Part shown: positions 18,953 to 60,919 of the stretch, in pieces
Layout: the number at the start of each line of letters is the position of its first letter
Numbering within the stretch: position 1 is the stretch's first letter
Source of the DNA: an uncultured Burkholderiales bacterium
GTDB lineage: Bacteria; Vulcanimicrobiota; Xenobia; Xenobiales; QWHO01
DNA: 61,389 nt
Direction of reading: 5' to 3'
NCBI GenBank assembly: GCA_964637145.1
Contig: CAZWUN010000002.1
Span: 1 to 61,389 of the forward strand
Notes under the pieces: model-generated
Databases searched by the model: none
Told to the model about the DNA's origin: nothing
The model's input: only the letters and a program-made list of their open reading frames with translations
Position numbers and translations under genes: made by a program

Positions 18953-20656
18953 TTACGGCCCGGCCGGAGCTGTGGCGCCATCCTCCCGCTTCTTGAGCGC
19001 CACGCCTCCGATGATCCAGTGGTCGCCGTCCTCGCCGAGGCTGGCCCCGCGGGGCGGCTCGTCCAGTCGGGCGGTCTCCAGGACCACCTCCACATCGAGG
19101 TCGTTGCCCTGGAGCAGCGGGACCAGGCGGTCGAGGCTCGCCTGGAAGTCGGGGGCGTCGGTCGCGTGCAGATGGCGCAGGAGAGCCAGGGCGCGCTCCG
19201 GTTCCAGTGCCGAGAGCGATTGGGTGACGTGCTCGGGTGCCAGGTCCTGTCCGTCCACCCAGGCACCGACCTCGCGCAGACCCGGGTCGGTGTCCCCAGC
19301 ACGCAGCGCCAGGCCGCGTACGACGGGGCTGTCCAGGCTGAAAGTCTTCCAGGAGCTCAGCGCCACCTCGGCCGAGTCGGTCTTCAGGCGGGCCAGGAAG
19401 AACGCGCGGGCGTCATCGGGTCGCTCGGCTTGCAGGACCGCGCCGAGGATGGAATTGGCCCAGCCGGACTCGCCCAGGAGCGAGCGCGCCTCGCAAATCT
19501 CGACGAACGTCGCGATCGCCTCAGCCCGATTCTGCGCCGGCAGCGACCGATAAGCGTCCAGACCATACTGGGCGCCGGCCGCCTTCACGAGCTGCCTCAG
19601 CTCCGCCGCCTGCTCGGGACGGTCCGGGTCGAGCGCCGCGTGCAGCGAGTTGGCCCAGCCGGACTCCCCCACCTGTGAGCGCCAGCCGCAAATCTCCTCG
19701 AACAGCGCTTTGCTCTTGGCCCGCTTCTCGGGGTTCTGGGGAAGTCTCTTGTATGCGTCCAGTCCGTACTGGGCGCCGGCCGCCCGGACCAGGTCCTTCA
19801 GCTCGGCCACCTGGTCGGGCCGGTCCGGGTCGACCGCCTGGAGGAGGAGGTTGGCCCAGCCGGACTCCCCCACCAGCGAGCGCCAGCCGCAGATCTCCTG
19901 GAACAGGGCGGCGCTCCTGGCCCGCTTTTGGGAGTCTTTCGGCAGGCTCTTGAAGGCGTCCAGGCCATACTGGGCGCCCGCGGCCTGGACGAGGCCCTTG
20001 AGCTCGGCCACCTGTTCGGGCCGGTCCGGGTCGACCGCCTGAAGGAGGGGGTTGGCCCAGCCGGACTCCCCCACCAGCGAGCGCCAGCCGCAGATTTCCT
20101 GGAACAGGGCCGCGCTCCTGGCCCGCTTCTCGGGCTCTTTCGGCAGGCTCTTGAAGGCGTCCAGGCCGTGCTGGGCGCCCGCGGCCTGGACGAGGCCCTT
20201 GAGCTCGGCCACCTGGTCGGGCCGGTCCGGGTCGACCGCCTGGAGCAGGGGGGTGGCCCAGCCGGACTCCCCCACCAGCGAGCGCCAGCCGCAGATTTCC
20301 TGGAACAGGGCCGCGCTCCTGGCCCGCTTCTCGGGCTCTTTCGGCAGGCTCCAGAAAGCGTCCAGGCCGTACTGCGCGCCGGCCGCCTGCACCAGGCCTT
20401 TCAACTCGGCCACCTGCTCGGGCCGGGCCGGGTCGAGCGCCGCGTGCAGCGCGTTGGCCCACCCCGACGCGCCCGCGAGCGAGCGCCAGCTGCAGATTTC
20501 CAGGAAGAGGTTGACGCTGGCGGCTCGGCGCGACGGATCGTGCGGCAGGCGCCGGAAGATCTCCTCGCCGTACTGCTGATTCGAGGCTGTCACCAATTGG
20601 CTCAGCTCCCCATTCTGGGGCGACACCGAGGAGCTGGCGATCGGACGCACAAACAT
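18953..20656 (-). CDS. hypothetical repeat protein (67-aa tandem repeats) with IIGGVALKKR C-terminal tail
   Basis: The ATG at 20656 (MFVRPIASS) leaves a 110-nt gap to the upstream TPR gene. It has 5 full and 2 partial copies of the unit ESGWAN.LLQAVDPDRP.QVAELK.LV.AAGAQYGLDAFKSLP....KRA.SAALFQEICGWRSLVG. I recognise no family. Confidence 0.75.
   Translation of the reverse strand: MFVRPIASSSVSPQNGELSQLVTASNQQYGEEIFRRLPHDPSRRAASVNLFLEICSWRSLAGASGWANALHAALDPARPEQVAELKGLVQAAGAQYGLDAFWSLPKEPEKRARSAALFQEICGWRSLVGESGWATPLLQAVDPDRPDQVAELKGLVQAAGAQHGLDAFKSLPKEPEKRARSAALFQEICGWRSLVGESGWANPLLQAVDPDRPEQVAELKGLVQAAGAQYGLDAFKSLPKDSQKRARSAALFQEICGWRSLVGESGWANLLLQAVDPDRPDQVAELKDLVRAAGAQYGLDAYKRLPQNPEKRAKSKALFEEICGWRSQVGESGWANSLHAALDPDRPEQAAELRQLVKAAGAQYGLDAYRSLPAQNRAEAIATFVEICEARSLLGESGWANSILGAVLQAERPDDARAFFLARLKTDSAEVALSSWKTFSLDSPVVRGLALRAGDTDPGLREVGAWVDGQDLAPEHVTQSLSALEPERALALLRHLHATDAPDFQASLDRLVPLLQGNDLDVEVVLETARLDEPPRGASLGEDGDHWIIGGVALKKREDGATAPAGP
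19455..20654 (-). repeat. in-frame tandem repeat, 201-bp period (one 195-bp unit)
   Basis: The unit marker TTGGCCCAGCCGGACTC recurs at 19455, 19650, 19851, 20052, 20253 and 20454. The three central units are near-identical at nucleotide level. Confidence 0.85.
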
Positions 20657-20765
20657 GCAGCTTGAACCTAGCGGGTCGGGGTGAAAAGTCTCTGAACGTG
20701 CGTCGAGATCGTGGGGCTGCTGGGGCCCAACGGCGCCCGCTTGCAAGGAGGGCCGGAAACATGGC

Positions 20766-22238
20766 TCAGGCCATGTCGAGCAGCTCTTGCAGGCTCTCGG
20801 CCTCATCAGGGGTAGCCCGGCCGCTCTTGAGGTAGGCCCGGCAGGTCTGGCGGGCCTCTTTCAAGCGGTTCTGCTCGATCTGGGTGCGGATCCGGCCTTC
20901 CACCGCCGGGAAGAAGGCCGACTGCAGCTCCAGGGCGCGGTTGTAGGCCTGCTCTGCCTCGGACGGGCGGTCGAGCTGCAGGCAGCACTCGCCCCTGTTG
21001 CACCAGGCCAGCAGGCTGTCGGGCGCCTCTTCACAGGCCCGCTCGAAGCTGATCAGGGCCTGCTCGAGCTCTCCCGCCCGGGCCAGCAGGGTTCCCCGGT
21101 TGAGCCAGGCCAGCATGGTGGTCGGACTTGCTTTGACGGCTCTGTCCAGGAGCGCCTGAGCCTCGTCCTCCTCTCCCAGGCGCATCAAGCATGAGCCCAG
21201 CGCGGCCAGGGCCACGCCGTCCCTGGGGTGCTCTGACATCGCTTGCCGATAAAGGGGAAGGGCCTGCTCGGGCGATTCTCCTTCCAGGAAGAAAGCTCGG
21301 GCCAGAGCGCGGGCCAGCAGCTCGGGAGCCCTGGCCAGGGCGCGGTACAGGCCCTGGCTGGTCAACACCCGAGAATCGCACGGAGCCAGCTCTACAGCCC
21401 GGTCGAGGCACTTGAGGGCCTCGTCCAGCTGCCCTCTGCGAGCCAGAGACCCGGCCTGGCCCAGCCAGCAGCGAGGGTTCTCAGGCGCGAGAGCCAGGGC
21501 TTTCTCCAGGCTGCGGGACGCGTCCTCGCTGCGATCCAAGAGTTCGAGGGCCCGCGCCTGCTCGAGCCAGTAGGGAGCGGCATCATCCAGCCGGGCCGCC
21601 CGGTCGAAGCGTTCCAGGGCTTCCTCGAGGTGGCCCAGGTCCAGCAGTCGGTTGCCCTGTTTGTGCCAGAACTCCGCCTGGATCTGGGGTTGGGTGATTC
21701 CCCTGGCCCGCAGGCCGGCCAGGTGCTCCGGCAGGCCTTCCAGGGAGAACCGGGTGGCCAATCCTCCCAACTCGGACCAGAGCCCCTGCAGTTGCCCCAG
21801 TGCGACCGCTTCTTGCAGCGCCCCCTCCGAATCGCCTCCAGATAGCTCCAGCGCCCGGGTAGCCGCCTGCCAGCCTTCCTCGAACCGGCCCTGCTCCTTG
21901 AGGATTCGGGCCTTCTCGGCCCACCCCTCGGGCTCTTGCGGGGCCAACCGGAGGGCTTGCTCGATGGCCTGGGCGGCCTGTTCCAGGGAGAGTTGTTGGC
22001 GGTGGGCCGCGGCCAGAGCGCACCAGGTATCGGCGCGCTCGGGATGGAACTCTCGGGCGCGCTCGAGCGACTCGAGCGCTTCGGCCGCCATGCCGCACGC
22101 GAGCAGGATCTGGGCCCGAGCCAGCAGCACCTCCACGTTCCCGGGCGACTTCTTGAGAGCTCGCTCAAGCACGTTCATGGCGCCATCCGGGTCGCCGCGC
22201 TCGAACTTGCCCATGGCCTGTTGGACGGGATCTTTCAT
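20766..22238 (-). CDS. tetratricopeptide-repeat protein
   Basis: 490 aa of repeated 34-aa A/L/E-rich TPR-like units (e.g. W..LA.....G....A...YRQAL...P). Confidence 0.8.
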   Translation of the reverse strand: MKDPVQQAMGKFERGDPDGAMNVLERALKKSPGNVEVLLARAQILLACGMAAEALESLERAREFHPERADTWCALAAAHRQQLSLEQAAQAIEQALRLAPQEPEGWAEKARILKEQGRFEEGWQAATRALELSGGDSEGALQEAVALGQLQGLWSELGGLATRFSLEGLPEHLAGLRARGITQPQIQAEFWHKQGNRLLDLGHLEEALERFDRAARLDDAAPYWLEQARALELLDRSEDASRSLEKALALAPENPRCWLGQAGSLARRGQLDEALKCLDRAVELAPCDSRVLTSQGLYRALARAPELLARALARAFFLEGESPEQALPLYRQAMSEHPRDGVALAALGSCLMRLGEEDEAQALLDRAVKASPTTMLAWLNRGTLLARAGELEQALISFERACEEAPDSLLAWCNRGECCLQLDRPSEAEQAYNRALELQSAFFPAVEGRIRTQIEQNRLKEARQTCRAYLKSGRATPDEAESLQELLDMA

Positions 22239-22269
22239 GGTCGGGTTCTTCGTCTTTGCCGGGTCGAGC

Positions 22270-23373: not shown

Positions 23374-23424
23374 TCAGGCCAGGTTTCCGCCAATCTGCCC
23401 TGGGAGCCTGCCGGCCCGTTGCAG

Positions 23425-24121: not shown

Positions 24122-24129
24122 CTCGGGTC

Positions 24130-24159
24130 TTGCCAACCTGGCTTCGGCCTGTCTATAAT
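24130..24159 (+). promoter_or_regulatory. sigma70-type promoter for tRNA-Trp
   Basis: TTGCCA, an 18-nt spacer, then TATAAT. The -10 element ends 13 nt before the tRNA. Confidence 0.55.
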
Positions 24160-24278: not shown

Positions 24279-24481
24279 GCTGGGTGGCCTCCTCCGGTTA
24301 GGTGAGCAAAAATGAGCCAGAGTGACCCTTTTGATTGGCACACCAGGGGTGTGAGTTTCGAGTGTCCAGGGTATACCGGAAAATACCGTGAGCCCTCTTG
24401 CGCCCGTCCTGGAGGGCCTCCTGGACTTCGGCGAGTCATTTCACCCGGGGTCCGGCCGAAGTACGATCATCACGCTTTGGA

Positions 24482-25603
24482 GTGTGTCGCTTGAGGACTG
24501 AAAGAACGCTGAACCTCCTGCTGCTCTTGCTATGTCTGACAGCGGTTTTGCGCGCCGAGGACCCGCCCAATCGACACGTGGGCGTGCTCGATCCGGCCAC
24601 CGGAAAGCCGCTCGGGCACTACCTTCTGATGCGGTCCACGCACGAGGCGATCGATGCCGGAACGGAAGACCCGCATTTCGCTTACCTCTGGGAGTTCTGC
24701 TTTGGAGAGCGCCGCGGAGCGGACAAACCGGAGGTCTACGACAGACCCGACCTCAATGGGGGACCCGACAAGACCTATCTGGGCACGCTGCCGGGGGAGA
24801 TCTCGATCCTCTGGTTTCGCAAGGAGGGCAACTACGAGGTCGGCTGGGGGCCTCTCAAGGCGGTCGACGCCGGCGGTCGGCAGTGGACTCTGATTTCGCG
24901 GACCTGCTATTCCACCGCCGGACGCAGCGCCTACTTTCATCACCCGCGGCTCAGCGTGGCGGGCCCATTTCTCCTGGTCGAAGAGGACCAGGGCCTGCTC
25001 TGTAAGCGGATCCCCGACAACAAAGTGCTCTGGCGCACGGATCTGAAGTTCAACCACTACTGTCGCTGGAACTGGGGCGCCTGGTATCGCGACGGGGCGC
25101 TCTACCTGAGCAGCTCCAAAGGACTGGTGCGCGTGAATCCCGACACTGGCAAGCAGCTGTGGACCTGGCCCGACGCGGTCGAAGTCTGCGATCTGGACCT
25201 CTATCCGGATGGCCACCTCTACGTTCGATACCAGTATGGTCCCTCCGATGCCCAGTTTGCAAGCCTGCGCAAAGCAGCCCTGGATTACTACAACTGGCCC
25301 GGCGATTTCCGATTCTTCAGCCGGATTATCCCCTACAAGGACCGCCACTTCGCTTCCGTCTGGTGGCGGAAGGGGGAGCTCGAGGGGAACTACCTCAAGG
25401 ACGGCAGGCAGGCCCTCTGGGAGTGCGTGGACGGCAAGTGGTCCTTCATCTTCGATTACGAGGTCAAAGGCCAGAGCCAGGAAGAGCTGGATGCGCTCTT
25501 CGCCCGACACGGATTCTCCCCCCGGATGCGCAAGCAGCTCACAACCGACTCCTTGGAAACAGTCTACCGCTATCGGGGCAAGCCGCTGCCACCTCCCCGA
25601 TAG
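24482..25603 (+). CDS. secreted hypothetical protein, paralog of 48465..49472
   Basis: Signal peptide LNLLLLLLCLTAVLRAEDP. The start is GTG 24482 or TTG 24491. Colinear similarity to the 48.5-kb protein runs along the whole length. Confidence 0.7.
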   Translation: MCRLRTERTLNLLLLLLCLTAVLRAEDPPNRHVGVLDPATGKPLGHYLLMRSTHEAIDAGTEDPHFAYLWEFCFGERRGADKPEVYDRPDLNGGPDKTYLGTLPGEISILWFRKEGNYEVGWGPLKAVDAGGRQWTLISRTCYSTAGRSAYFHHPRLSVAGPFLLVEEDQGLLCKRIPDNKVLWRTDLKFNHYCRWNWGAWYRDGALYLSSSKGLVRVNPDTGKQLWTWPDAVEVCDLDLYPDGHLYVRYQYGPSDAQFASLRKAALDYYNWPGDFRFFSRIIPYKDRHFASVWWRKGELEGNYLKDGRQALWECVDGKWSFIFDYEVKGQSQEELDALFARHGFSPRMRKQLTTDSLETVYRYRGKPLPPPR

Positions 25604-25704: not shown

Positions 25705-28209
25705 ATGCACATTCTCGCTCAGAGCGCGGCCCGCACCCTGAGCTGGTTCGGGCCTCAGCGAGCCAGCTCGGTTGAGAGTCCCGACAGCGTGGTGCTGGGA
25801 GAAGAGCGCGCCACCGAGCCCAGGACCCTGGCCCCGGCCTGGGTGGCCGAGACGCCTCCCGTCCCGGCGCCGGCCCCCGAAGGCCGGGTTGCCATGGCTT
25901 TCCTGACCGGGCTTCGCCGCCAACTCATCGAGGGGAGCGCCACCCTGGACAAGCCCATGCAGGCGGAGCTGGCCAGGCAGGCCCACGGCCAGGGGCATCC
26001 CCTGGCTGCCCGCCTGGCCCGAGTGCTGCTCGACGACCACGCCCACTACGATTCCGCCCTGGAGATGTGGGTGGCCGAAGCGGGCGATCCGGTGGCCTAC
26101 CTCGAGGGACTGCACGAGAGGATGAGTGAAGACCGAGCCCGGCCTGAGGGGGCCTTCCCTCTCCACCTCGACGTCTGGGATCAGTTTCTCGATCACCTGA
26201 AGGAACGGCCCATGACGCCCACCGCTCTGCGCACTCTGGTGCACCTGTGGACCGGGCTCGAGGACCGCGCTCGGCTCCAGTTCGACAGCGATACGCGGGC
26301 CCAGGAGCCGGCCGAGGCCGACCTCAAAATGGCCGCGCGCTGCCGCGCCCAGGTGGAGGCCTGGGTGGGAAGCGGTCAGGCCCGGGTGGTGGGGGGCACC
26401 CTGGACCAGGTCAAGCTGGGCGCAGCTATCTCCGACAACCGGATCGAAGTCCATCCCAGCCCGCTGGATATCGCCCGCCTGGATCCGGCCGACCCCGATC
26501 CCACGGCTCGTCTGATCGCCGAGGGTCGCCTCGGACGCGACGGCGGCGCTCTGGCCTCGGCCCTGGGCGAGCTCATCAAGCAGCATCCCCGGCTCGAGGA
26601 GGGCGGTTATGTGAGCCGCAACCTGATCCCGCTGCTCCTTGCCGACCATGTCGGACCCAGCTACGCGGCCCGGTCGGCCCTGAGCAACCTGTTCGAGCGG
26701 CGCGCCGATCTGATGAGCCCGGTGCTGCAAACTCTCTGCCTGCAGCACCGCGGCGTTTATCTGCCCGAGCCGTTGGAGAAGACGGTCCAGTATGCCGGTC
26801 TCAAGCTCGGCTGGCGCCCCGATACCCCCGAGCAGGTTGCCTGGCTGGCCGGCAAGCTTTTCCAGTCGCGGGGCGGGCAGGAGGGCGACCACTTGATGCG
26901 CAGCTCCAGTGAGTTCACCCTGGCCGTTCAGCTTCTGAAGGATTGTCCCGCAGAGCTGCTGGCCACTCTCCCCCTTCCAACCAGCTTGCCCGAGGCTGCT
27001 CTCGACCATCTGCTCGAGGTCGGCAACGACGACCGGCTGCTCGACCTTTGGAACGGGGAGTTTGACCACGCCTGGCTGGTGGGCGAGCGGGGAGAATCGC
27101 TCCTGGCCGGGTTGGAGACGGCCTACCGGCAGGCCGGCAGCCTGGAGGATCTGCCCCCGCGCGCCCGGGCCACTCTGGCCATCTTGCACCAGGATCCGAC
27201 CAACCGGCCGCGGCTCTACGCCCTGCTCGAAGGAGACCTGGAGAGGCAGCCTGAGCACCGGGCCACCCGCCGGATGGTGGATGCGGCCCGCCTGCACGCC
27301 CTGGAGCAGGGACCCCAGCGACTGGGCCAGCTCTCCGGCTCCGAGCGTGGCCGCGAGCTCGAGCGCCTGTTGCGGATCAACTCCTTGCTGGGCGAGGAGG
27401 TGCCCGGATCGGGTCTGATGGAGCCTTACGAGAACCAGCTGGCCTCGGAGCGCTCGGCCCCCCTCCTGGCGGCCCTCGATCCGGCCGAGCGAAGCGCCCT
27501 GGGCGGGCCTGCCCTGGCTCGCTTCGAAGAGAGCTACCGCCAGGCCGGCTCGCTGGAGGAGCTGGGTCCCGAGGCCCGGGCCTCGCTCAGCCTGCTCGCT
27601 AACCTCTGGACGGAGCAGCCACAGCTCTCCCAGAAGCTGCTGAGCCTGCTCCGACCCGAGCTGGAAAGCGGCGCTGCCGGCGTGCCAGACGAGCTGGAAG
27701 CTCTCATCGATGGCTACGTGGCCGAAGAGACCGCTCGCGCGGTAGGCGGCTTTGCCGGCCAGGATCTGCCCGAGCGAGTGGCCAGCTACCAGACCGGCCT
27801 GAAGCTCGCCCGGGCCTCCTCCGATCGAAGAGACCTCGAGCGGACCCTCCGGGATGGGTTCTGTGCCCAGGCGGCGGCCCACCCGGTGCTCTCGAAGCTG
27901 GTCGATCCCGACGAGCTGGATGCCTCGCTGGAGGTGCTTCACGAGCTGATCCAGGACCCGGACGGCTGGGCCAGCGGGGCAGAGCGCTACCTGGAGCTGA
28001 CCGGCAAGCTCCCCGAGGACGGCATGGGGGTTTACCAGCAAGCCCGCGAGCTGCGCGGCCAGGGGATGCCCTGGGAGGCGGCCCGGGAGCTGGCTCTGCG
28101 GCGCCACCTGAAGGTGCCCGACCGCTCGCCTGGCGCGGCCGTCGAGCTTTCCCCGGGCAAGGTCACGGTGGGGGGCGTGGTGGTTCGCGAGCGTCGGCGC
28201 AACAGCTGA
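25705..28209 (+). CDS. large hypothetical protein (834 aa) with VTVGGVVVRERRR C-terminal tail
   Basis: GC3 bias and an acidic, helical composition favour the plus frame over the 849-aa antisense ORF. An internal duplication is visible (YRQAGSLEDLPPRARA / YRQAGSLEELGPEARA). I recognise no domain. Confidence 0.75.
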   Translation: MHILAQSAARTLSWFGPQRASSVESPDSVVLGEERATEPRTLAPAWVAETPPVPAPAPEGRVAMAFLTGLRRQLIEGSATLDKPMQAELARQAHGQGHPLAARLARVLLDDHAHYDSALEMWVAEAGDPVAYLEGLHERMSEDRARPEGAFPLHLDVWDQFLDHLKERPMTPTALRTLVHLWTGLEDRARLQFDSDTRAQEPAEADLKMAARCRAQVEAWVGSGQARVVGGTLDQVKLGAAISDNRIEVHPSPLDIARLDPADPDPTARLIAEGRLGRDGGALASALGELIKQHPRLEEGGYVSRNLIPLLLADHVGPSYAARSALSNLFERRADLMSPVLQTLCLQHRGVYLPEPLEKTVQYAGLKLGWRPDTPEQVAWLAGKLFQSRGGQEGDHLMRSSSEFTLAVQLLKDCPAELLATLPLPTSLPEAALDHLLEVGNDDRLLDLWNGEFDHAWLVGERGESLLAGLETAYRQAGSLEDLPPRARATLAILHQDPTNRPRLYALLEGDLERQPEHRATRRMVDAARLHALEQGPQRLGQLSGSERGRELERLLRINSLLGEEVPGSGLMEPYENQLASERSAPLLAALDPAERSALGGPALARFEESYRQAGSLEELGPEARASLSLLANLWTEQPQLSQKLLSLLRPELESGAAGVPDELEALIDGYVAEETARAVGGFAGQDLPERVASYQTGLKLARASSDRRDLERTLRDGFCAQAAAHPVLSKLVDPDELDASLEVLHELIQDPDGWASGAERYLELTGKLPEDGMGVYQQARELRGQGMPWEAARELALRRHLKVPDRSPGAAVELSPGKVTVGGVVVRERRRNS

Positions 28210-30300: not shown

Positions 30301-30361
30301 GGATTTGCTCCTCGACCTGGTGTGTGCAACGGCCTTCGTTCGTTCGCAGGTCTCTCCTCCG

Positions 30362-30616
30362 TTAGTCCGGGCCGGAGTGAGCTTCAGCCGCCATAGTTCT
30401 CCTTGAGTCCCTCGACCAGCTCCTGACAGCCCTTCTCTCGGCGGGGCTGTCCCAGGGGCGGGTGCAGTCGGAGAGCTCCTCCTGCAAACGCTCCCGGCGC
30501 TGGAGCTCCTGGGCCTCTTCGCGCTGCTCCTCGCGCAGTCTCTCCAGCTCCAACTGGCGCGGGTTCTGCGGGACGCAGGTCTGATTCTGGGGGATGGAAA
30601 TGCTCCCGATATCCAT
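30362..30616 (-). CDS. small charged coiled-coil hypothetical protein (84 aa as given)
   Basis: GGGAGG lies 9 nt upstream of the ATG at 30616. GC3 bias is good for about the first 55 codons, then it moves to another frame (see findings). Confidence 0.4.
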   Translation of the reverse strand: MDIGSISIPQNQTCVPQNPRQLELERLREEQREEAQELQRRERLQEELSDCTRPWDSPAERRAVRSWSRDSRRTMAAEAHSGPD

Positions 30617-30804
30617 CTGGATGGACCTCCCTGCGTTGATGATCCCATCCTGACTTCGGAAGCTGGCGCCGATCTGAAATCGTGTGAACGAGTTCGGAGC
30701 TTTTTCAGAGCCTCCGGATAAGGTGGAGGCATGCTGCCATCCGTCCAGGAGATGAAGAACGTTTCCCCATTGACCCTGCTTGCCAGGAGAGGAGATTTTG
30801 TGCC

Positions 30805-31365
30805 GTGCATCTCATGCCTCTGAGCGCCTCGAGCGCGCCACCAGAGCCCACCAGCCGGGAGCGTTTGAACAGCACCATCACGCATTTTCAGGCGCTGGTG
30901 GACCAGTGGGAGCCCGAGATCAAGACCGACCTGGAGAACTGCGAGAAATGGCGTTCGTCCGCCCTGAAGAATGATAAGCTGGCTGGTTGGGGCCTGAAGG
31001 GAGCCGTGGCCGGGGGCGTCCTGGCCATGGTCGGGGCGGGCGTATCGCTGGCCATGGGTCTCGGGACCCACGGCGTCTTTCCGGGGCTGGGGGTCTTCCT
31101 GGTGGGGATCACCGTCTGCCAGGTCGCCTGCATGCGCCGGGACAGCGCTCAGATGGAATATCAGATGACCTTTCCCAGCGTGAAGCACCGTCAGGAGCTG
31201 TTGAAGACTCGGGCCTATCCGCAGCTTGAGCAGGCCCGCGCGGCCCTGCTCAAGCAGGATACCGAGGAAATGACCGCCCTGGCGGATGGGCTCCGCCAGG
31301 TCGGCAACATCATGGAGACCAAAGACTCCCTGGTGGTGGGGGGAACCCTGATTCGCAAGCGCTGA
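30805..31365 (+). CDS. TM-hairpin hypothetical protein with DSLVVGGTLIRKR C-terminal tail
   Basis: AGGAGAGGAG lies upstream. The start is GTG 30805 or ATG 30814. A Gly/Ala-rich double hydrophobic segment sits mid-protein. Confidence 0.65.
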   Translation: MHLMPLSASSAPPEPTSRERLNSTITHFQALVDQWEPEIKTDLENCEKWRSSALKNDKLAGWGLKGAVAGGVLAMVGAGVSLAMGLGTHGVFPGLGVFLVGITVCQVACMRRDSAQMEYQMTFPSVKHRQELLKTRAYPQLEQARAALLKQDTEEMTALADGLRQVGNIMETKDSLVVGGTLIRKR

Positions 31366-31393
31366 AGTCAGGTGCAAGAGGGGGCAGACCACC

Positions 31394-32185
31394 TCACGGG
31401 TGGGGGCTTTGAGACACGGGCATCGCGCCTTCCCAGCGCCGGGGCACCACCACTCCACCCACGATGAGCGAATCACCTCGAGTTTCCAGGCTCGTTGATT
31501 CAGGCCCGTCCGTCAGCCTGGCCACTTCGCTCAGCTCCTGGATTGTCTGGCCCAGAGCCTCCCGGGCGGCTGGCTCCAGGAGGGGCTGGTGGAGCAGGTC
31601 CGCGATCAGTTCGTCGACCGTCTGGCCGGGCAGGCTCTGGAACCGCCGCTGCAGGGCGCCGATCTGGCGGGCCGTCTCCAGCGAGCCCTCGGCCACCAGG
31701 CGGGCTTCCCGAGCACACAGGCCCTCGAGCAGCGTCTCGCGACCGAGGACTGGTCGCTGAGGGAGGGCGCCTGCGGCGGACTGGCCACGCTCGATAGCCT
31801 GGATCAATCTCTGGCAGCCCTCGCGCTCACTTCCCTGTCGGTGCCAGCGGACCAGCAGCACGGCCGAGGTCGCCGCCCCCACGGCCCCCACCAGGGTGAG
31901 CGGCCAGAAGCCATAGCCCAGGCCGCAGCCGGCCACACCCAGGCCGAGAAGTCCGGTCCACAGGGGCAGAGTCTGATGATCAGGGCTTCGCTCCGGGATG
32001 GCCTCCATGCGCTCGGCAGCTGCGCAGTGCATAGAGTAGAGATCTTCGCCAGGCGCCTGGCTGAGGGTCAACCGGTCGGTCTCAGCCTGGCGGGCGCCCT
32101 CCAGGTCACCTTGCACGACCAGGGCTGTGCGGCGAGCCTGCAGGGCCTCGCAAACGGTCTGGCGGGAGGGGGAATGAATGTTCAT
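31394..32185 (-). CDS. TM-hairpin hypothetical protein with DSLIVGGVVVPRR C-terminal tail
   Basis: 263-aa ORF with a Gly-rich double hydrophobic segment (LWTGLLGLGVAGCGLGYGFWPLTLVGAVGAATSAVLLV). Convergent with 30805..31365. Confidence 0.65.
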   Translation of the reverse strand: MNIHSPSRQTVCEALQARRTALVVQGDLEGARQAETDRLTLSQAPGEDLYSMHCAAAERMEAIPERSPDHQTLPLWTGLLGLGVAGCGLGYGFWPLTLVGAVGAATSAVLLVRWHRQGSEREGCQRLIQAIERGQSAAGALPQRPVLGRETLLEGLCAREARLVAEGSLETARQIGALQRRFQSLPGQTVDELIADLLHQPLLEPAAREALGQTIQELSEVARLTDGPESTSLETRGDSLIVGGVVVPRRWEGAMPVSQSPHP

Positions 32186-32342
32186 GGCCCTTTCAGGCTA
32201 GGGCTTCCAGCGCAGGCCAAAGTTACACCGCCGCGCTAGATTGTGAACTTCACGCCCGGTCAGGCAAGGCCATTTTCGTGACGAGCGCATTGGACCCGGC
32301 TGCTCCGGGAGGAGGGCCCCAGCCGTGCCGGAAAGCGCATGA

Positions 32343-34121
32343 ATGAGCCCCGAGGCCTGGACTGTCTTGCTGGTCGTGTTCGCGGCCGTGGTGCTTTTCG
32401 TTTCCGAGCGCCTGGCCGTGGAGCTGGTAGCCCTGCTGGTATTGTGCGTCCTGCTCCTGAGCGGCATTCTGACCCCCGGCGAAGGCCTGGCCGGATTCAG
32501 CAACGAGGCCACCCTGACCGTGGGCGCGATGTTCGTGCTCAGCGCCGCTCTGTTCAAGACGGGCGCTGTCGATCGGGTCGGCGTCTGGCTGGCCCGTCAG
32601 CTCAAGAAGGGCTACTATCTTGGCCTTCTCTCCATGATGGGCTCGGTGGCCGTTCTATCGGCCTTCATCAACAACACAGCTGCCGTGGCCGTCTTCCTGC
32701 CCCTGGTGCTGGGCGCTGCCCGGCAGTCCGGGATCAGCCCCTCGCGCCTTCTGATGCCCCTCTCCTTCGCTTCGATGTTCGGCGGGTGCTGCACGCTGAT
32801 CGGCACCTCGACCAACATCCTGGTCAGCTCGCTGGCCGAGCAGCACGGCCAGCGCCCCTTCGGGATGTTCGAGTTCTCGGGAGTGGGGCTGATTCTGGCC
32901 GGGGCCGGCACGCTCTACATGCTGACGGTGGGGCAGCGCCTGATCCCTCAGCGGCGCCCCGCCGAAACGGAGCTGACCAGTGCCTATGCCATGGCCGACT
33001 ACCTGGTCGACCTGGTGCTGCTCCCCGATGGCCCCTCGGTAGGCAAGACGGTGGCGCGCTCGACCCTGGTGCGCAACCTGGACCTCGACATTCTCAGCCT
33101 GCAACGCGACGGTCGTCGCATGACGGTGGCTGCCGACACGGTGTTGCAGGCTCAGGATATCTTGCGGGTGCGTTGCTCGATCGAAGACCTCCGCAAACTG
33201 CAGGACCTGGAGGGAGTGGCTCTCTACGAGCAGCTGCAGTGGCCGGATCACGAGTTCGAATCGGACGAATTGACGCTGGTGGAAGCGGTGGTTGCACCAT
33301 CCTCCAATCTTGTCGGTCTGTCGCTGCGCGAGTCGCACTTTCGCAACGAGTTCGGGGGTACCGTGCTGGCCATCCGCCAGCGCGGTCGCCTGCTGCGGCA
33401 GAAACTTTCGGCCGTCTCGCTCAAGTCGGGAGACGTGCTGTTGATCGAGTTACGGCGTGAGTCGCTGCCGCACTTGCAGGGCAGCCGGGCTTTCGTGGTG
33501 CTGAGCGAGGTGGCCGACCCGGGCCTGCGCCGCCACAAGCTCTGGCCCGCGGTGCTGGTCGTGGGCGGGGTGGTGGTCACCGCCTCGCTCAACTTGCTTC
33601 CAATGGTCGTCGCGGCACTGGTTGGGGCGGTGGCTCTCCTCCTGCTGGGTTGCCTGGACACCGAGGATGTCTATCGAGCCATCGAGTGGAAGGTGCTCTT
33701 CCTGCTCGCTGGCGTGCTCTCGCTCGGGGTGGCCATGGAGAAGACCGGAGCCGCCAGGGCCCTGGCCAGCTTGCTGGTCACAAAGCTCGGCGCTCTGTCC
33801 CCCTGGCTCTTGTTGGCTGGTTTCTACCTGGCCACAACCCTTCTGACCGAGACCATGTCCAACAACGCCACCGCGGTCTTGATGGCCCCGATTGCCATCG
33901 CGGCCTCCGAGCAGGTGGGAATCGATCCTCGACCGCTGCTGGTGGCCGTGACCGTGGCGGCTTCGGCCAGCTTCATGACCCCGGTCGGCTACCAGACCAA
34001 CACGCTGATCTACGGTCCCGGCCAGTACACCTTCGGCGACTTCTTGCGGGTAGGCACTCCACTCAATCTGCTGTGTTGGGTGGTGGCCACGCTGTCGATT
34101 CCCTGGTTTTTCCCGTTTTGA
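32343..34121 (+). CDS. SLC13/DASS-type permease with two internal TrkA-C (RCK_C) domains
   Basis: Multi-TM N- and C-terminal halves flank two soluble domains of about 80 aa. The typical N-terminus is W.VL.V....L.VSE....E.VAL. Confidence 0.88.
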   Translation: MSPEAWTVLLVVFAAVVLFVSERLAVELVALLVLCVLLLSGILTPGEGLAGFSNEATLTVGAMFVLSAALFKTGAVDRVGVWLARQLKKGYYLGLLSMMGSVAVLSAFINNTAAVAVFLPLVLGAARQSGISPSRLLMPLSFASMFGGCCTLIGTSTNILVSSLAEQHGQRPFGMFEFSGVGLILAGAGTLYMLTVGQRLIPQRRPAETELTSAYAMADYLVDLVLLPDGPSVGKTVARSTLVRNLDLDILSLQRDGRRMTVAADTVLQAQDILRVRCSIEDLRKLQDLEGVALYEQLQWPDHEFESDELTLVEAVVAPSSNLVGLSLRESHFRNEFGGTVLAIRQRGRLLRQKLSAVSLKSGDVLLIELRRESLPHLQGSRAFVVLSEVADPGLRRHKLWPAVLVVGGVVVTASLNLLPMVVAALVGAVALLLLGCLDTEDVYRAIEWKVLFLLAGVLSLGVAMEKTGAARALASLLVTKLGALSPWLLLAGFYLATTLLTETMSNNATAVLMAPIAIAASEQVGIDPRPLLVAVTVAASASFMTPVGYQTNTLIYGPGQYTFGDFLRVGTPLNLLCWVVATLSIPWFFPF

Positions 34122-34186
34122 GGGCGGCCTTCATTCAATCTTTCCCAGCAACAGATCCTGGCGAAACTGTCTGGTATACTTCTACC

Positions 34187-35932: not shown

Positions 35933-35936
35933 CATC

Positions 35937-45500: not shown

Positions 45501-45987
45501 CGTGCCTCACGAGGGGAAGGTGGCCACTCCCGAGCAGATCCAGGCCAGTTGCCTCTCTTCGGTCGAGCTGGCCGAGGCTCTGACCCGGGTGGCCGCCACG
45601 CGCCAGTTCGTGGTGCTCGACTGCTGCCACTCGGGGGCGGCGGCCACCAGCATGAACCAGGCTCTCTCCGCCGGACTGGTGCGAGCCCAGCAGGATCTGG
45701 CCCGCCAGAGCGGGGTATTCCTGGTGGCGGCGGCATCGACCGATCAGGCGGCGCTGGAGGCCGGAAAGCTCGAGCACGGCTTGCTGACCTACTCGGTGCT
45801 GAGCGGCCTGGGCGACGACAAGCCCCCCGGAGCGCCGGTGAACTCTCGCGGCCTGGTGACCGTGAACGGATTGCTCTTGTTCGTGTCGGGCGAGGTGCCC
45901 CGGCTGGCCGAGGAGTACTTCGGCCAGCCACAGGATGTGGTGCAATACAGCAGCGGGCAGGATTTCCCCCTGCGCCGCGTGCGCTAA
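42562..45987 (+). CDS. WD40-repeat protein with C-terminal caspase-like (peptidase C14) domain
   Basis: The N-terminus has a hydrophobic segment. Many WD40 units follow (GHTDRLACLTFDPAGRWLATGSVDQTVKLWD, ...). The C-terminal domain has HVLSVGVSRY, FLAGHG (His) and LDCCHSG (Cys). The start is uncertain (ATG 42562 or TTG 42613). Confidence 0.85.
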   Translation: MGANFAGTIPVACGRLHLLLVILILIGWLALPGMAEPPTLILQDGHTDRLACLTFDPAGRWLATGSVDQTVKLWDLEADKLHCTIHLEDAPLALAFNSGGQLAVGTRKGVTLYDSSNGLALSPGPAAALRNPAALAFLNSDLVLGISEDATGPRANVADLKREGRIGLGWPLPSITPQARLAPAGLALSPDGRYLAIAYVELAPRELKATDRFVAVWDVSAFGRFSGPLVGDDFQARPEVLSLLGDGRPLARMALTPRPGIDPSFDLRLSLAFSPDSRRLAVADLNEVALFDPANGSKLASAPGAWRRIAWGKAGILATNFLNTSSQPRLAWLGSDLKGQVLVAERPPYEGEELALAALQGTEGNMADTFGYSAVAASLKTTLFAACQGEQCELWEGAQLTRKLTGRSLCLSALALSPDRRLLAVGGYGAVVVWDLERGKPVYRFGQLGGLEVLSLAFSADGRMLAAGEFTKIGAARLRVWELSGQILVLEQSKAAPPAFTRQADGSINGRRTDTGYLSLAFSPDGRWLGVGEIGGSLSLVALPGGQTRLLKGEQEDTWRGAVGSLAFSPDGRRLVSSTNGGEVVEWEIPSGKARTLMPQTDRFGRSSLAFARDGTLVTKTRKQGLVVWKPGAAPRVVDPEDNPAVLCSVDSGTALLAGEQVTEQRDLSTGKRLFSLKLPYPTARAFLREGVLIAPDSQSSVGFWKAPEGKLLASAIMLDEGGQWLVAAPDGLFDGSSEAFKQIQWRLGGQLYALDQFYNDFFAPGLLTRLLQPGPAPQPAQALSSLKVAPPELTILKPQAGDSVNEASLTVEVKLEDRGGGVSLVRLFQNGHRVPDERIQVEGGVARARVDLEGGVNTLRATAFDREGKVESRGDTVRVTCLAQGAKPRLHVLSVGVSRYQDSQLNLRSGRADAESIAQAFKPGSLFEEVKVTLLVDDQASVAGVRKALQDLKAGAAPQDTLLVFLAGHGQVLGQTFYFVPHEGKVATPEQIQASCLSSVELAEALTRVAATRQFVVLDCCHSGAAATSMNQALSAGLVRAQQDLARQSGVFLVAAASTDQAALEAGKLEHGLLTYSVLSGLGDDKPPGAPVNSRGLVTVNGLLLFVSGEVPRLAEEYFGQPQDVVQYSSGQDFPLRRVR

Positions 45988-47372: not shown

Positions 47373-47525
47373 TCAGGCTCTGGTTTTGAGGGCCACGCCC
47401 CCGACCAGGAGCTTCTGGGCGACGGTCGCAATGGCGCCCCCCAGCGGCCCGTTCACCAGCCTGGCGACCTGGTTGCTGGCGGCCTGGTGGCCGTCAGCAA
47501 CCAGGTCGCTCAGCGGCACGGCTAC
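47373..47525 (-). other. 50-codon in-frame extension downstream of TAG, ending LLVGGVALKTRA
   Basis: Hand translation gives VAVPLSDLVADGHQAASNQVARLVNGPLGGAIATVAQKLLVGGVALKTRA*. 44 of 50 codons end in G or C. It is in frame with 47526..47927. Confidence 0.55.
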
Positions 47526-47927
47526 CTAGATCTGTCCGGTGGCGCTCTTCAAAGTGGCCCGCTCGCTGACGATGCGGACGACCGTGGCCGGCTCGGAGAA
47601 GAACGGATCCTTGCCCAGGTCGGAGGTCTCGGTGGGGACCACCCTTTGCTCCTTGAGCCTGTGCACGGGGAGGGTGGGGGGAAACAGGCTGTCGGCCACC
47701 CGCTCGGCAACCTTCTCGGCCATCTGCGAACAGACCACGAAGACCTGACCCTCCTGGTTGACCAGCCGGAGCATCTCGCGCCCGTTGACTGTCTCGACGC
47801 GCTCGACCTGACAGACTCCGGGCCCGTCGGTGACCGAGCGCACGCGATCAAGCTCACTGGACGGCACGGACCTCGAGGTCAGGTCGAGCGTGACCTGGTC
47901 TCGGGTTGGCCCCTGGGGAGCAGTCAT
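47526..47927 (-). CDS. hypothetical protein (133 aa up to an in-frame TAG)
   Basis: Strong GC3 bias. I recognise no domain. The frame continues after the TAG (see 47373..47525). Confidence 0.6.
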   Translation of the reverse strand: MTAPQGPTRDQVTLDLTSRSVPSSELDRVRSVTDGPGVCQVERVETVNGREMLRLVNQEGQVFVVCSQMAEKVAERVADSLFPPTLPVHRLKEQRVVPTETSDLGKDPFFSEPATVVRIVSERATLKSATGQI

Positions 47928-48464: not shown

Positions 48465-49472
48465 TTAAGGGAGTTTCAGCAAGCGACGACGCATGGTAGG
48501 GGAGAGCTGGTGGCGGGCGTACAGGGCATCCAGCTCGGCCTCGCTGATCCCGCCCGGGTGATCGAGAACGAAGCTCCAGCGCCCGTTCACGCGTTCCCAG
48601 ATGGCCCAGCGGCCCTGCTGCTGGGTGCTGCCAAAGTAGAGGTCGCGGTAGGGCACCCAGGCCGCCCAGGTAACTTTGGCGCCGTATTGCTCCTGAGAGG
48701 CCTGACGCAACTCCTGCCCTAACTGCCGGGGGGCATAGATATAGCCAACGTAGAGGCGCCCGTCGTCGTAGATGCGAAGGTTTTCCACCTCGCCTGCTCC
48801 GGCCCACTTCCACAACACTTTGCCGCTGGCCGGGTCGATGCGGGCCAGTCCCCCCTCCAGGTCGGCGAAGACGCATCCACGCTGGTAGAAAGCTCCCCAG
48901 GGGTAGCGGCAGTGCGCGAAGTGCCAGGTCGCCTTCCAGAGCGTGGATCCGTCGGCCCACTTCATGCAGGTCACGCCTTCGGCGCTGTCTGTGAAGAGGT
49001 AAGGCCCGGCCACGGTGAGGCGGGGTTTGTGAGCGGCCAGGCTGCGCCCGCTCGAGTGAAACTCGGTGCGCACCAGGGGGTGAAAGTGGTCATTGCGGAT
49101 CAGGCCAAACATGCCTGGCCCCTCGTATCCCTCGTCTGCTCGGAAAGCAAACTGCGTGCCGTCACTGAGCAGACCTCGCCCGGTCACGGCCTGGCCGATC
49201 TGCCACTTGCCGCCGTAGGGCTTGGTGGCGGCATCCTCGTCCTCGAAGCCGACGATGTAGACCTTCTTTTCATGGCCGCAAAAACGGCGTGAGTAGGGGA
49301 AGTGAGGAGCTTCGACTCCGTCCAGGACCTCTTGCTGCAACTCTTCGTCCAGCCGGTAGTGCCCCAGAACGCGTCCCGATTCAGGGTCGAGCACGGCCAG
49401 AAAGGAAATGCCCGGGTCTTCGGCCCGAGCCAGGCCGAACAGCAGAAGCGCAACCAGGAGGACCCTCCCCAT
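48465..49472 (-). CDS. secreted hypothetical protein, paralog of 24482..25603
   Basis: Signal peptide MGRVLLVALLLFGLARAEDP. An alternative start lies at 49559. Colinear similarity with the 24.5-kb protein. Confidence 0.7.
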   Translation of the reverse strand: MGRVLLVALLLFGLARAEDPGISFLAVLDPESGRVLGHYRLDEELQQEVLDGVEAPHFPYSRRFCGHEKKVYIVGFEDEDAATKPYGGKWQIGQAVTGRGLLSDGTQFAFRADEGYEGPGMFGLIRNDHFHPLVRTEFHSSGRSLAAHKPRLTVAGPYLFTDSAEGVTCMKWADGSTLWKATWHFAHCRYPWGAFYQRGCVFADLEGGLARIDPASGKVLWKWAGAGEVENLRIYDDGRLYVGYIYAPRQLGQELRQASQEQYGAKVTWAAWVPYRDLYFGSTQQQGRWAIWERVNGRWSFVLDHPGGISEAELDALYARHQLSPTMRRRLLKLP

Positions 49473-49689
49473 GAAAGCCTTGTTCAGCACCTGAACCGTG
49501 CTTCCTGGCCGGGTCTGCGCATCCCACCTTCGGAGCCATCCGAGGGTCGATTTGCTCAAAGATGCTCCTTTGGCCGGGTCCCGTTCCCGGGAACCGCGAG
49601 CGTACCCCGCAAGTTCCGTCGAGGCGGTTTCCAGAATCGTTCAGCCCCGTTCCCTACGCTGGTGTCGCAAGCAAGTGATAGGAGCGTCG

Positions 49690-50660
49690 ATGCCAGGACC
49701 TCGCAGCGATTTTGAGCGCGTAGACTATGAGCAGCCCCACTTCATCCGGATGCGAGCGATCCTGGAGGCTCATCCGGAGATCAAGCAACTGTTCGGGCCC
49801 GACAGCCGGATTGCCGCATGGACCGTTGCGCTGGTAGGCGGGCAACTGGCCCTGGGCGCCTGTCTCGAGGGGCGTTCTTTCTGGATGATCCTCGTCACCG
49901 CCTATGTCATCGGCGCCGTGGCCAATCACGCCCTCTGGGTGGTGATCCACGAGTGTGCTCACCGCCTGGTGTTCCGACGTGCCCTGGGCAACCGCCTGCT
50001 CTGCCTGCTGGCCAACTGGCCCCAGGTCGTCCCCGGAGGGATCCCGTTCTGCAAATACCACCTCTTGCACCACGCCTATCAGGGCGAGCAAGACTTCGAC
50101 GGTGACCTGGCGGGCGAGGACGAGGCCCGGTGGGTGGGCAACAGCACGCTCCGCAAAGCTTTGCTGATGCTGCTCTTCTCCTTCGTTCAGGGCACGATTC
50201 GCCCGGCCATCTCAAGCGGGTCCGTCTCTGGGATGGTTGGTTCGTGGCCAATATTCTCAGCCAGCTGTTCTTCCTGAGCGTCTACGCCCCCCTGGCGGGC
50301 TGGGGAGCAGTGCTCTATCTGTTCTTGTCGTTCGTCTTCAGCATTGGCCTGCATCCTCTGGGAGGCCGCTGGATCGCCGAGCACTACCTGCATCACGACC
50401 TGCAGGAGACCTATTCTTACTACGGTCCGCTGAACAAGCTCAGTTTCAACGTGGGCTACCACAACGAGCACCACGACTTCATGCAGGTTCCCTGGTGCCG
50501 ACTTGGGCAGGTGAGGGCCATCGCCCCGGAGTTCTACCAACCGCTCTACGCTCACCCATCCTGGCCCGCCGTGCTGAAGCGCTTCATCTTCAGCCCTCAA
50601 AGCACTCTGTACGATCGGGTGGTGCGAGCCCGGCAACCTTCCGACCGACCGGACCTTTAA
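49690..50660 (+). pseudogene. sphingolipid delta-4 (dihydroceramide) desaturase-like fatty acid desaturase, split by a 1-nt frameshift near 50203-50210
   Basis: ORF 49498..50277 carries the DEGS-type N-terminus DFERVDYEQPHFIRMRAILEAHPEIKQL and His boxes HECAH and HLLHH. ORF 50130..50660, in another frame, carries GLHP, ETYSYYGPLN and HNEHHDF. Confidence 0.8.
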
Positions 50661-56377: not shown

Positions 56378-56403
56378 GGCTCGCGCTTCTTGCTCGGGAG
56401 TCT

Positions 56404-59821: not shown

Positions 59822-59899
59822 ACCTGAGGGTTCGAGGCTGACGAAGCGGCAACCTTTGCGTAACATTCGGCCCTTTACCCCCTGGACGGCGGGCGTGAG

Positions 59900-60919
59900 T
59901 TGGAGGACATGCAGGTCCACGTCCTCAGCCGGGACGCGGTGATGAAGACGGTCTACGAACGGGCCGACCGACTCAAGAGCTCCGAGCTTTCCGACCCGGG
60001 CAGCGCCGCTGCTCGGGATGTCGTGCTGCGCGAGGCCTATCGGATGGAGCAGATTCCCGGGGCCGACACGACCGCCATGCACGGCGAGCTCGCCAGGCTG
60101 CGTCAAGAATCTCGCTCCGACGGCCGGAAGGCTATCCTCGTGGGGGCCGGCCTGGCGGCCGCCGGAGTGGCAGTGGGTCTGGCCCTGGGGCCCAGCCTGC
60201 CCATGGCCGGCACCATCGCTCCCATCGTGGGGGTGGGCTCAGCCGCAACGGCCTTTCTGATTGGCTATGGCGGCTTCCATAACGATCGCTTCTATCAAGA
60301 GACCGGCGAGATGCTCGATCGCTGGACGCGCGTGGCTACGGCCCCTCCGCTGGCCCCGGGGGAGTGGCTCAAGACCCTGCCGGCGGCCACACCCAACGCG
60401 CCCGCCACGCGCCAGGAGGTGCTCGAGCTGATGCAGGCCTCCCGCGGCTACCTGGCCGCCAACCTCGATCAGCCCGGCCATGCCGCCGCCCTGACCGAGG
60501 TGGAGCGCGACCTGGCCGGTCTCTCGGCTCGCCCCGAGGAGAAGCTGAGCGATGTGCGCGCCAACCTGGGCGCCGAGCAAGCGGCGCTGCGTAAGCAGAT
60601 GTTCAAGGTGGGCTGCGGGGCCGTCGGGGGAATGATCCTCGGGCTGGTCGGCCTGCCCTTCCTGGGCGCTACCGGCATCGCCCTCGGCTTCGGCGGCTCG
60701 GCCGCCCTGACCACGGTGGGGCAACTGATGCTGCGGCGCGAGAAGAAGATCCTGACCCTGGATCGGCACCTGGCGGGGTGGGAAAGGCAGCTCGAGAACC
60801 TCAAAGCGATCTCCTCGGAGGTCCACCAACTGGCCAATCCTGGCCAGACCGTCGGGGTACAGCGCCAGGCCGGCTACCTGGTGGTGGGCGGGGTACGCGT
60901 GCCGGTGGCGGCGGGGTGA
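59900..60919 (+). CDS. hypothetical membrane protein with two TM hairpins and [15 protein letters not shown]-terminal tail
   Basis: 339-aa ORF. The start is uncertain (TTG 59900, ATG 59909 or ATG 59942). It has two Gly/Ala-rich double hydrophobic segments. Confidence 0.65.

Follow-up and report, generated by a model that had tools for sequence, protein, structure and literature searches.

Short tags shared by the ends of otherwise unrelated proteins have repeatedly led to sorting enzymes, secretion systems and protein compartments. Encapsulin targeting peptides, for example, combine a linker, glycine-hinged hydrophobic anchors and terminal Lys or Arg residues that bind an acidic patch of the shell, as in NTGGDLGIRK, PLTVGSLRRGG and DGSLGIGSLKG (PMC7925596). 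Type IV secretion signals, such as the Arg-rich tails of Agrobacterium VirE2 and VirF, are unstructured C-terminal regions, usually net positive; the BASS1-11 and fungal HET-s motifs are strand and Gly-turn motifs of some 20 residues; and the tripartite sorting signals (PEP-CTERM, GlyGly-CTERM, MYXO-CTERM and LPXTG) place a short, lineage-restricted signature ahead of a transmembrane (TM) helix and a terminal basic cluster on many unrelated proteins. Here we describe a C-terminal tail module shared by six proteins (T1 to T6) encoded in the 61,389 nucleotides that make up the whole of contig CAZWUN010000002.1, henceforth the window. Judged by format, its closest mechanistic analogue appears to be the encapsulin targeting peptide, followed by the other systems in the order just given. 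The module is real, statistically secure and lineage-specific, and it is present in none of the libraries searched. We tentatively favour, at a little less than an even chance, its interpretation as an 'address tag', a modular signal at the C-terminus that is peculiar to the lineage and would be recognised by a common partner for docking or targeting.

Translation reproduced all six of the protein ends put forward in the first-pass annotation of the window. A six-frame scan with the regular expression [LIVWMF][IVTL][IV]GG[VT].[VILM] returned seven matches, six of which end 3-16 residues ahead of a stop codon; the remaining one falls within a TM segment of a CitMHS transporter (Table 1). Significance was assessed by permuting residues within each of the 46 called proteins 2000 times. 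With the stricter expression of the first-pass annotation, [LIVW][IVT][IV]GG[VT].[VIL], and the last 30 residues taken as the tail, five matches were observed where 0.0005 were expected, T5 falling outside this pattern because of the Leu at its second position. The core [IV]GG[VT] was seen six times in tails against an expectation of 0.12, and twice at internal positions against 1.5. Since internal counts remain at background while the tails are in excess, the enrichment is specific to C-termini, so that, for these 46 proteins, the comparison of tail, internal and shuffled counts proposed along with the original claim came out in its favour. The GC content of the window, about 66%, would favour Gly-, Val- and Arg-rich peptides, yet against these observed and expected counts the probability that chance, low complexity or a repeated DNA element at gene ends produced the tails is practically nil. 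Codons for the shared residues vary freely among the tails (GGG GGC, GGT GGA and GGA GGC, for example) and core changes between orthologues are synonymous only. The codon differences place the similarity at the protein level and rule out a DNA repeat or terminator artefact.

The shared element measures about 35-40 residues, similarity being detected over some 30-57 residues by BLASTP and in alignments. The hydrophobic and Gly-Gly core is as originally described, but the likeness reaches about 30 residues further upstream of the GG than had been recognised. The module begins at the close of the last helix of the protein body, marked by a loose E-V-x-x-L (in many cases S-E-V-x-x-L). Next come a Pro/Gly-rich linker of 6-10 residues and then about 20 residues containing three very short predicted strands: h-x-E/Q-x, a turn, (D/G)-x-h-h-h, a pair of small residues and V-x-h, where h is hydrophobic. 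The pattern across tails is h-x-E/Q-x-x-(D/G)-x-h-h-h-G-G-V-x-h followed by basic residues, the module closing with an Arg/Lys cluster and 0-16 unconserved residues. The small pair is usually GG and rarely AG or GS, the tails of relatives demonstrating that either substitution is allowed. In the window tails the core is followed by no more than 3-16 residues, most of them charged or polar, and no hydrophobic window follows the GG, in agreement with the reported lack of a downstream TM helix. The net-positive extreme C-terminus that had also been reported is found in five of the six tails, while T6 ends in VRVPVAAG.

Two independent AlphaFold2 (AF2) models were obtained, for T4 from four sequences and for T6 from three. 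In both, the final helix leads through about eight residues of coil into three strands of 3-4 residues (residues 234-236, 239-242 and 245-248 in T4; 316-319, 322-325 and 328-331 in T6). Mean predicted local distance difference test (pLDDT) scores were 54 for T4 and 65.5 for T6, and in each model the tail scored below 50 and was unpacked against the body. In view of this low confidence the models serve only to back the view of the tail as an appendage that is flexible, extended and beta-prone. Foldseek comparison of the T6 model with the PDB yielded nothing significant (best E 0.27), and a search of PDB sequences with the tail profile turned up nothing but designer 'Pizza' propeller repeats, which are spurious matches. 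A C-terminal GG of the ubiquitin-like or ThiS-MoaD kind was rejected: ahead of the tail both models have helix in place of a beta-grasp, and the bodies bear no relation to one another.

These data bear on a structural alternative, that the tail is an autonomous mini-domain at the C-terminus that serves structure or oligomerisation alone (as a beta-hairpin cap or a dimerisation element, for example) and has been inherited and shuffled between lineage-specific proteins without any addressing role. A span of similarity of about 35-57 residues, exceeding that of a bare peptide motif, is in line with such a unit, as would be the consistency of the predicted strands. However, neither Pfam nor NCBIfam contains a match and the tail profile has none among PDB sequences. 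Moreover, AF2 confidence is low and no packing is seen, the linker is variable and Pro/Gly-rich, and strict placement at the extreme C-terminus of unrelated bodies is unexpected of a generic structural domain. We consider the mini-domain unlikely; were the tail only a lineage-specific structural cap, its importance would be modest.

An early concern was that orthologues might lack the tail. Instead, they hold its core invariant. Five orthologues of T6 (around 82% identity) and one paralogue (41%) retain LVVGGVR[VI]PVA, and few parts of the T6 alignment are as well conserved as the tail. The T6 bodies are 82% identical compared with 92-96% for the adjacent GH1, amylase and aminotransferase. Over the 30 codons around the core there are 4-12 synonymous changes between orthologues, while replacements are limited to the linker; at the codon level, this is the pattern of purifying selection on the core. 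The T2 orthologue P0015 (67% identity) retains RVTVGGVVVRERRRS. A separate homologue search with T1 (P0007) identified P0031 (41% identity), which holds the tail in an AG variant, RWIIAGVPVKKRET. T3 belongs to a cluster of nine members at 90% identity or more, and its tail is identical across six related contigs.

Beyond the window, an exhaustive HMMER search of 1.84 billion (1.84e9) representative proteins with the tail profile (E <= 1e-3) gave 19 matches in total, eight of them to unrelated repeat proteins (e.g. LPDNLTVGG repeats). The 11 genuine matches are T1, T3, T5b, relatives (orthologues, paralogues or fragments) of T1, T2, T4, T5 and T6, and P0010, a new 191-residue hairpin body with the tail. 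All end 0-8 residues from the C-terminus, and every one traceable to a labelled contig comes from the Candidatus Xenobia / Eremiobacterota lineage. Scanning the relatives' contigs with the profile revealed four weaker tails on new bodies (Table 1), bringing the totals to about ten families and at least seven unrelated body types, four of the latter being present in the window alone. The tail is thus a modular element, predicted to be flexible, that is confined to one lineage and always lies 0-16 residues from the C-terminus; no N-terminal copy was found among the 1.84e9 proteins or in the six-frame open reading frames (ORFs) of the window and related loci. A word-indexed homologue search with the tail profile, a method unsuited to short modules, recovered only a 48-residue T5 fragment. 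No description of the motif was found in the literature on Xenobia. To our knowledge Candidatus Xenobia (Eremiobacterota) is a class known from metagenomes only.

Taken together, the labels of related sequences indicate a single lineage, by which the organism of the window would belong to class Xenobia of phylum Eremiobacterota (WPS-2). The T6 orthologues occur in metagenome-assembled genomes (MAGs) titled Candidatus Eremiobacteraeota KLAP168, Candidatus Xenobia AMX-MBFR-33 and 'uncultured Burkholderiales', and the T3 cluster contains entries under the names Candidatus Xenobia and 'bacterium CPR1'. One contig titled 'uncultured Burkholderiales bacterium', CAYYHB010000043.1 (L008, L009), encodes proteins approximately 81-97% identical to those of the window and is collinear both with the window and with Xenobia-labelled MAGs; its 'Burkholderiales' label is probably wrong.

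Table 1. Tail-bearing proteins and other features of the window and related loci.
Feature	Sequence	Coordinates	Strand	Description	Tail module	Core or C-terminal end
T1	window	18953..20656	-	567-aa repeat protein	18953-19099	WIIGGVAL, 18995-19018
T1 repeats	window	19554-20510	-	tandem copies of a 201-bp unit
T2	window	25705..28209	+	834-aa orphan	28081-28209	VTVGGVVV, 28162-28185
T2 internal stretch	window	26383-26409		tail-like, residues 227-235
T3	window	30805..31365	+	186-aa TM-hairpin protein	31249-31365	LVVGGTLI, 31330-31353
T4	window	31394..32185	-	263-aa TM-hairpin protein	31394-31549	LIVGGVVV, 31445-31468
T4 lost stop	window	31433-31435	-	TGG
T5	window	47373..47927	-	small soluble protein	47373-47492	LLVGGVAL, 47388-47411
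T5 internal stop	window	47523-47525	-	in-frame TAG
T6	window	59909..60919	+	336 aa, two TM hairpins	60797-60919	LVVGGVRV, 60878-60901
New body				229 aa; divergently adjacent to T6 paralogue		GVQVGGVLLKRRTP
New body				551-aa helical-repeat protein; directly downstream of T2 orthologue		AIIVGGVRVKVRAS...
New body	L001			744 aa		DKLAIGSVPVRLRKRT
New body				246-aa P0010-like hairpin protein		RLVVGGVVLGRRG
Seventh scan match	window	33555-33578	+	inside CitMHS transporter
Variable slot	window	30301-32342		variable slot together with its flanks (CN hydrolase, T3, CitMHS)
Variable slot	L009	8977-11362		corresponding region
Propeller	window	24398..25603	+	PQQ_2/BamB-like beta-propeller; signal-peptide-like N-terminus; directly upstream of T2
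Propeller	window	48465..49559	-	paralogue of the above (36% identity); signal-peptide-like N-terminus; directly upstream of T5
Pseudopilin cluster	window	34127-36949	+
Pseudopilin cluster	L002	4510-8603
Mobile element	L009, L010	1-6781		primase-polymerase-like gene, resolvase, phage-type integrase
DUF4781 protein	L001	4583-10648		2021 aa; directly downstream of T4 orthologue
WD40-caspase protein	window	42460-45987	+	1175 aa; WD40 beta-propellers, Ig-like domains, C-terminal caspase (Peptidase_C14); mid tail-gene region
Signalling genes	window	7427-9223, 10362-13768, 17197-18912, 38959-39894, 40794-42878		cyclic-nucleotide signalling
Desaturase	window	49498-50277, 50130-50660		fatty-acid/sphingolipid desaturase; two overlapping ORFs

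The carriers themselves are largely uninterpretable. Family assignments were made by Pfam scans for the window and, for the 14 related loci, from precomputed Pfam gene tables, with a few genes also scanned. None of eleven tail-bearing proteins matched Pfam, and the six window carriers were without a match in NCBIfam (E up to 10), PHROGs or PADLOC as well, in accordance with the earlier statement that they belong to no recognised family. Among the other window genes, 31 of 37 have a Pfam match, and the difference is significant by Fisher's test (p = 1.5e-4 in the window, 5e-7 for window and loci together). Three kinds of carrier may be distinguished: helical-repeat proteins, large or small soluble orphans, and hairpin proteins, whose one or two hairpins are weakly hydrophobic and rich in Gly. 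TM hairpins are present in four carrier families, and no carrier can be recognised as an enzyme of a kind such as DyP, ferritin-like or haemerythrin. The bodies had been called dissimilar throughout. This needs qualification, since T3, T4 and T6 prove to be distant paralogues within a single Gly-rich TM-hairpin family, T6 being a tandem duplication of a T4-like module, and the window therefore contains four unrelated body types rather than six.

Individual carriers show further peculiarities. T1 comprises about 4.8 copies of its repeat (87% matches), each encoding a 67-residue helical unit without a family match. T4 reads TGG where its orthologues have a TGA stop after ...GGVVVPRR, a stop loss that adds 13 residues. 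T5, formerly taken for one protein, is interrupted by a TAG codon that separates a 133-residue ORF from a tail ORF of 48-50 residues, although the tail itself is present; its orthologue P0013 (159 residues) is uninterrupted and can be aligned across the stop at 37% identity, while the NCBI annotation of T5 consists of the 48-residue piece alone (P0005). T2 contains an additional, internal tail-like stretch, ARVVGGTLDQVK / GQARVVGGTLDQVK, which its orthologue conserves as GQAVLVGGSLDQVR, and this may be a relic of fusion between two tail-bearing modules.

As a heuristic for signal peptides, the best 10-residue Kyte-Doolittle (KD) mean within the first 45 residues was calculated. Values were no more than 1.3 in 13 tail proteins, compared with 2.3-3.5 in exported controls; by this measure none of the 13 has an N-terminal hydrophobic region and the carriers lack an N-terminal signal peptide. 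Given this, and since the simplest topology of the hairpins would leave both protein termini on the same face of the membrane, cytoplasmic exposure of the tails is the most likely arrangement. From there they might serve as peripheral membrane anchors, the hhhGGVxh segment wedging into the bilayer interface of the cytoplasmic membrane and Arg/Lys residues contacting anionic lipids. Most tails do have 6-8 hydrophobic residues followed by a basic cluster, and several carriers are already membrane proteins. For the hairpin proteins, though, such an anchor would be redundant, the T6 tails have a single basic residue, and the GG-V and the upstream polar positions (E/Q, D) are conserved beyond the needs of a lipid anchor. 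We regard this possibility as quite unlikely.

Comparison with the family-1 encapsulin peptide reveals a likeness of format: both are short, C-terminal after a flexible linker, and built of hydrophobic anchors parted by glycine and succeeded by Lys/Arg, and both are carried by a variety of proteins, encoded by genes that may be dispersed. The tail differs in having GG-V-x-h in place of G-S-L, with one variant IGSV, and in the approximately 15 further conserved residues upstream. Were it a true family-1 cargo-loading peptide, with the shell encoded elsewhere in the genome, the close match in format would be explained, including the linker, L-x-[IV]-G-[GS]-[VL] and K/R (PLTVGSLRRGG may be compared with KVTVGGVVVRERRR of T2 and DKLAIGSVPVRLRKRT of L001). 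However, the widely conserved GSL motif is absent, the Pfam scans of the window and the Pfam gene tables of the 14 loci revealed no Linocin_M18/HK97-type shell gene, and the carriers are orphans, including four families with TM hairpins, rather than recognisable enzymes. True encapsulin cargo is thus a very improbable explanation.

Tripartite sorting signals share with the tail a short, lineage-restricted signature on many unrelated proteins and a terminal basic cluster, and are excluded by the lack in the carriers of both a TM helix after the signature and, on the KD heuristic, an N-terminal signal peptide. Curated hidden Markov models of C-terminal signals (NCBIfam/TIGRFAM) gave no match at E <= 10, and neither sortase nor exosortase nor rhombosortase genes came up in the window or loci. 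The earlier placement of the tail outside the PEP-CTERM, GlyGly-CTERM and LPXTG classes is therefore upheld. The C-terminal domain of type IX secretion was likewise rejected as a candidate, being a beta-sandwich of 70-100 residues accompanied by a signal peptide, in contrast to a module of about 35-40 residues with no signal peptide and no Pfam or NCBIfam match.

The basic C-termini recall type IV secretion effectors, as do the carriers themselves, which are signal-peptide-less, orphan, lineage-specific, fast-evolving and effector-like, some with weakly hydrophobic TM hairpins. The difference lies in the signals, those of type IV secretion being compositional and poorly conserved whereas the tail has an invariant hydrophobic-GG-V core; in addition, no type IV secretion or coupling-protein gene is found in the window or loci. 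A more specific proposal is that the tail is the export signal of a Xenobia-specific translocation route, so far undescribed, that would carry signal-peptide-less, fast-evolving and cassette-variable clients out of the cytoplasm; these would be the helical-repeat proteins and the weakly hydrophobic Gly-rich hairpin proteins, which look like translocated membrane effectors. We view this as a minority possibility; if true, it would give conserved C-terminal secretion signals a new class, from an uncultured phylum.

The BASS and HET-s motifs provide a different parallel. They too are C-terminal on small helical membrane-targeting and other effectors, and BASS genes are clustered, as are those for tail proteins. 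By analogy, the tails might zip together in cross-beta (amyloid-like) self- or hetero-association, so that carriers co-assemble or template one another with no separate receptor, the repeat proteins acting for example as sensors and the Gly-rich hairpin proteins as membrane effectors. The core L-I-V-G-G-V-V-V is close to the C-terminal segment LMVGGVVIA of human amyloid-beta, which is identical at six of nine positions to LIVGGVVVP of T4, and the segment is strongly beta-prone and aggregation-prone. MVGGVV and GGVVIA are known steric-zipper peptides. The three strands modelled by AF2, with their G-containing turns, would resemble one rung of a BASS or HET-s motif, and tail genes often lie in adjacent pairs. 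Nevertheless, amyloid-beta is evolutionarily unrelated, and in the tail acidic and basic 'gatekeeper' residues border the segment, which forms part of a conserved module. No N-terminal copy is carried by an adjacent NLR, STAND or TGP sensor, whether in the window, the loci or the 1.84e9 proteins, and the window has no NB-ARC or NACHT gene. The third 'strand' contains proline at varying positions (VVVPRR, VRVPV, GSVPV, AGVPV), while in the BASS11 motif of Bab/Agp one such substitution, to proline, abolished function. The N/Q pattern typical of BASS, RHIM and PP motifs is not present, and BASS form specific pairs whereas a single tail motif is common to many proteins per genome. Amyloid-like association is, in our view, unlikely.

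Processing or degradation is a further alternative, in which a protease or unfoldase would read the tail, either cleaving near the GG or basic residues or using it as an abundance-setting degron. This would suit the C-terminal position and the variable residues past the basic cluster, which resemble a removable extension, and a candidate protease of Lys/Arg type, the WD40-caspase protein, is encoded in the same region. A conserved 35-residue module would be elaborate for a degron, however, no protease co-occurs with tail genes in the other loci, and the region upstream of the GG is predicted to be a helix and not a ubiquitin-like beta-grasp. A processing or degradation signal appears decidedly improbable.

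Under the favoured interpretation, that of a recognition signal, a common partner would take up the extended hydrophobic-Gly-Gly-hydrophobic stretch, either through a groove or through strand addition, and the basic cluster would touch an acidic patch on that partner. Helical-repeat proteins, soluble orphans and Gly-rich TM-hairpin proteins would thereby be recruited, as a defined set of clients, to one destination. A non-Sec export or translocation route would be the most likely destination, with our confidence split about half and half between export and docking on an intracellular scaffold or shell; the tail data would fit secretion, docking to an intracellular partner or self-association alike.

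Several observations weigh against a recognition signal. No candidate receptor, secretion system, shell protein, sortase-like enzyme, NLR/STAND ATPase or dedicated protease came to light in either the window or the 14 loci, and only pseudopilins of the type IV pilus / type II secretion system (T2SS)-like kind and two exported beta-propellers are encoded nearby. Membrane-hairpin proteins are awkward clients for export or encapsulation. The T4 stop loss and T5 nonsense codon show that constraint on the tail falls short of absolute in this genome, unless they are assembly errors, and T6 is without the basic cluster. Finally, the AF2 models are of low confidence, resting on alignments of only 3-4 sequences. 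Of the tag-like behaviour originally proposed, portability on at least seven unrelated body types is supported, while neither a sorting enzyme nor a secretion system, a shell or a protease has emerged from the window or the 14 loci. Since no machinery was found, the tag function is something that we infer, as are the existence and identity of a receptor and the destination of its clients.

The tail genes are set among housekeeping genes and yet are clustered. The six in the window occupy 42 kb, L003 and L004 each contain an adjacent pair, and on CAYYHB010000043.1 a stretch of about 11 kb takes in T3, a P0010-like gene and T6. Between T3 and CitMHS is a variable slot, occupied in the window by T4 (- strand) and in six contigs by a different, P0010-like tail protein (+ strand). 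Comparison of the window with L009, as well as with L010-L014, shows the flanks (CN hydrolase, T3 and CitMHS) to be 87-91% identical in DNA and the slot itself to be unalignable, so that, as judged from these alignments, the slot has undergone cassette-like replacement. Clustering and the variable slot fit a co-functioning, diversifying client set.

Other differences are evident around the same genes. Six relatives have a His_Phos_1 gene overlapping the start of T3 that has been lost from the window. In L009 and L010 a mobile element adjoins the Na+/H+ antiporter-CN hydrolase-T3 region, and is not at that position in the window. The DUF4781 neighbour in L001 makes the surroundings of T4 there unlike those in the window.

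The two paralogous propellers of the window have N-termini of the form ...LRA/EDP and a common C-terminal helix, EELDAL[FY]ARH..SP.MR. They are possible but unproven associates of the tail genes. As conserved receptor neighbours they were rejected, since they precede T2 and T5 in the window only and not in other loci; the TPR protein beside T1, considered as a receptor candidate, has no tail-like N-terminus. Pseudopilin clusters, with an N_methyl motif, DUF7305, a 690-residue propeller-bearing pseudopilin and T2SSF_N, are found in two unrelated settings, each time within 2-4 kb of a tail gene, a proximity that may be coincidental.

The sharply defined tail, absent from Pfam and NCBIfam, marks orphan proteins of Candidatus Xenobia that would otherwise defy interpretation. 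Profile and regular expression together offer a handle with which to list the client set in every Xenobia genome and to seek co-occurring machinery. This is a direct route to machinery, novel or otherwise, in an uncultured class.

The remaining gene content of the window is ordinary for a chromosome, and includes tkt-tal-zwf-opcA, RNase II, histidine kinases, GH1 and amylase. An apparent frameshift at about 50130-50277 divides the desaturase gene. Together with the T5 TAG and the T4 stop loss this makes three small lesions in the contig, attributable either to MAG assembly errors or to gene decay in progress. The window is also unusually rich in cyclic-nucleotide signalling genes, the set comprising two CHASE2 adenylate/guanylate cyclases, an EAL protein, an MshEN-GAF-HD-domain protein, a PilZ protein and a protein with two cNMP-binding domains and a metallo-beta-lactamase domain.

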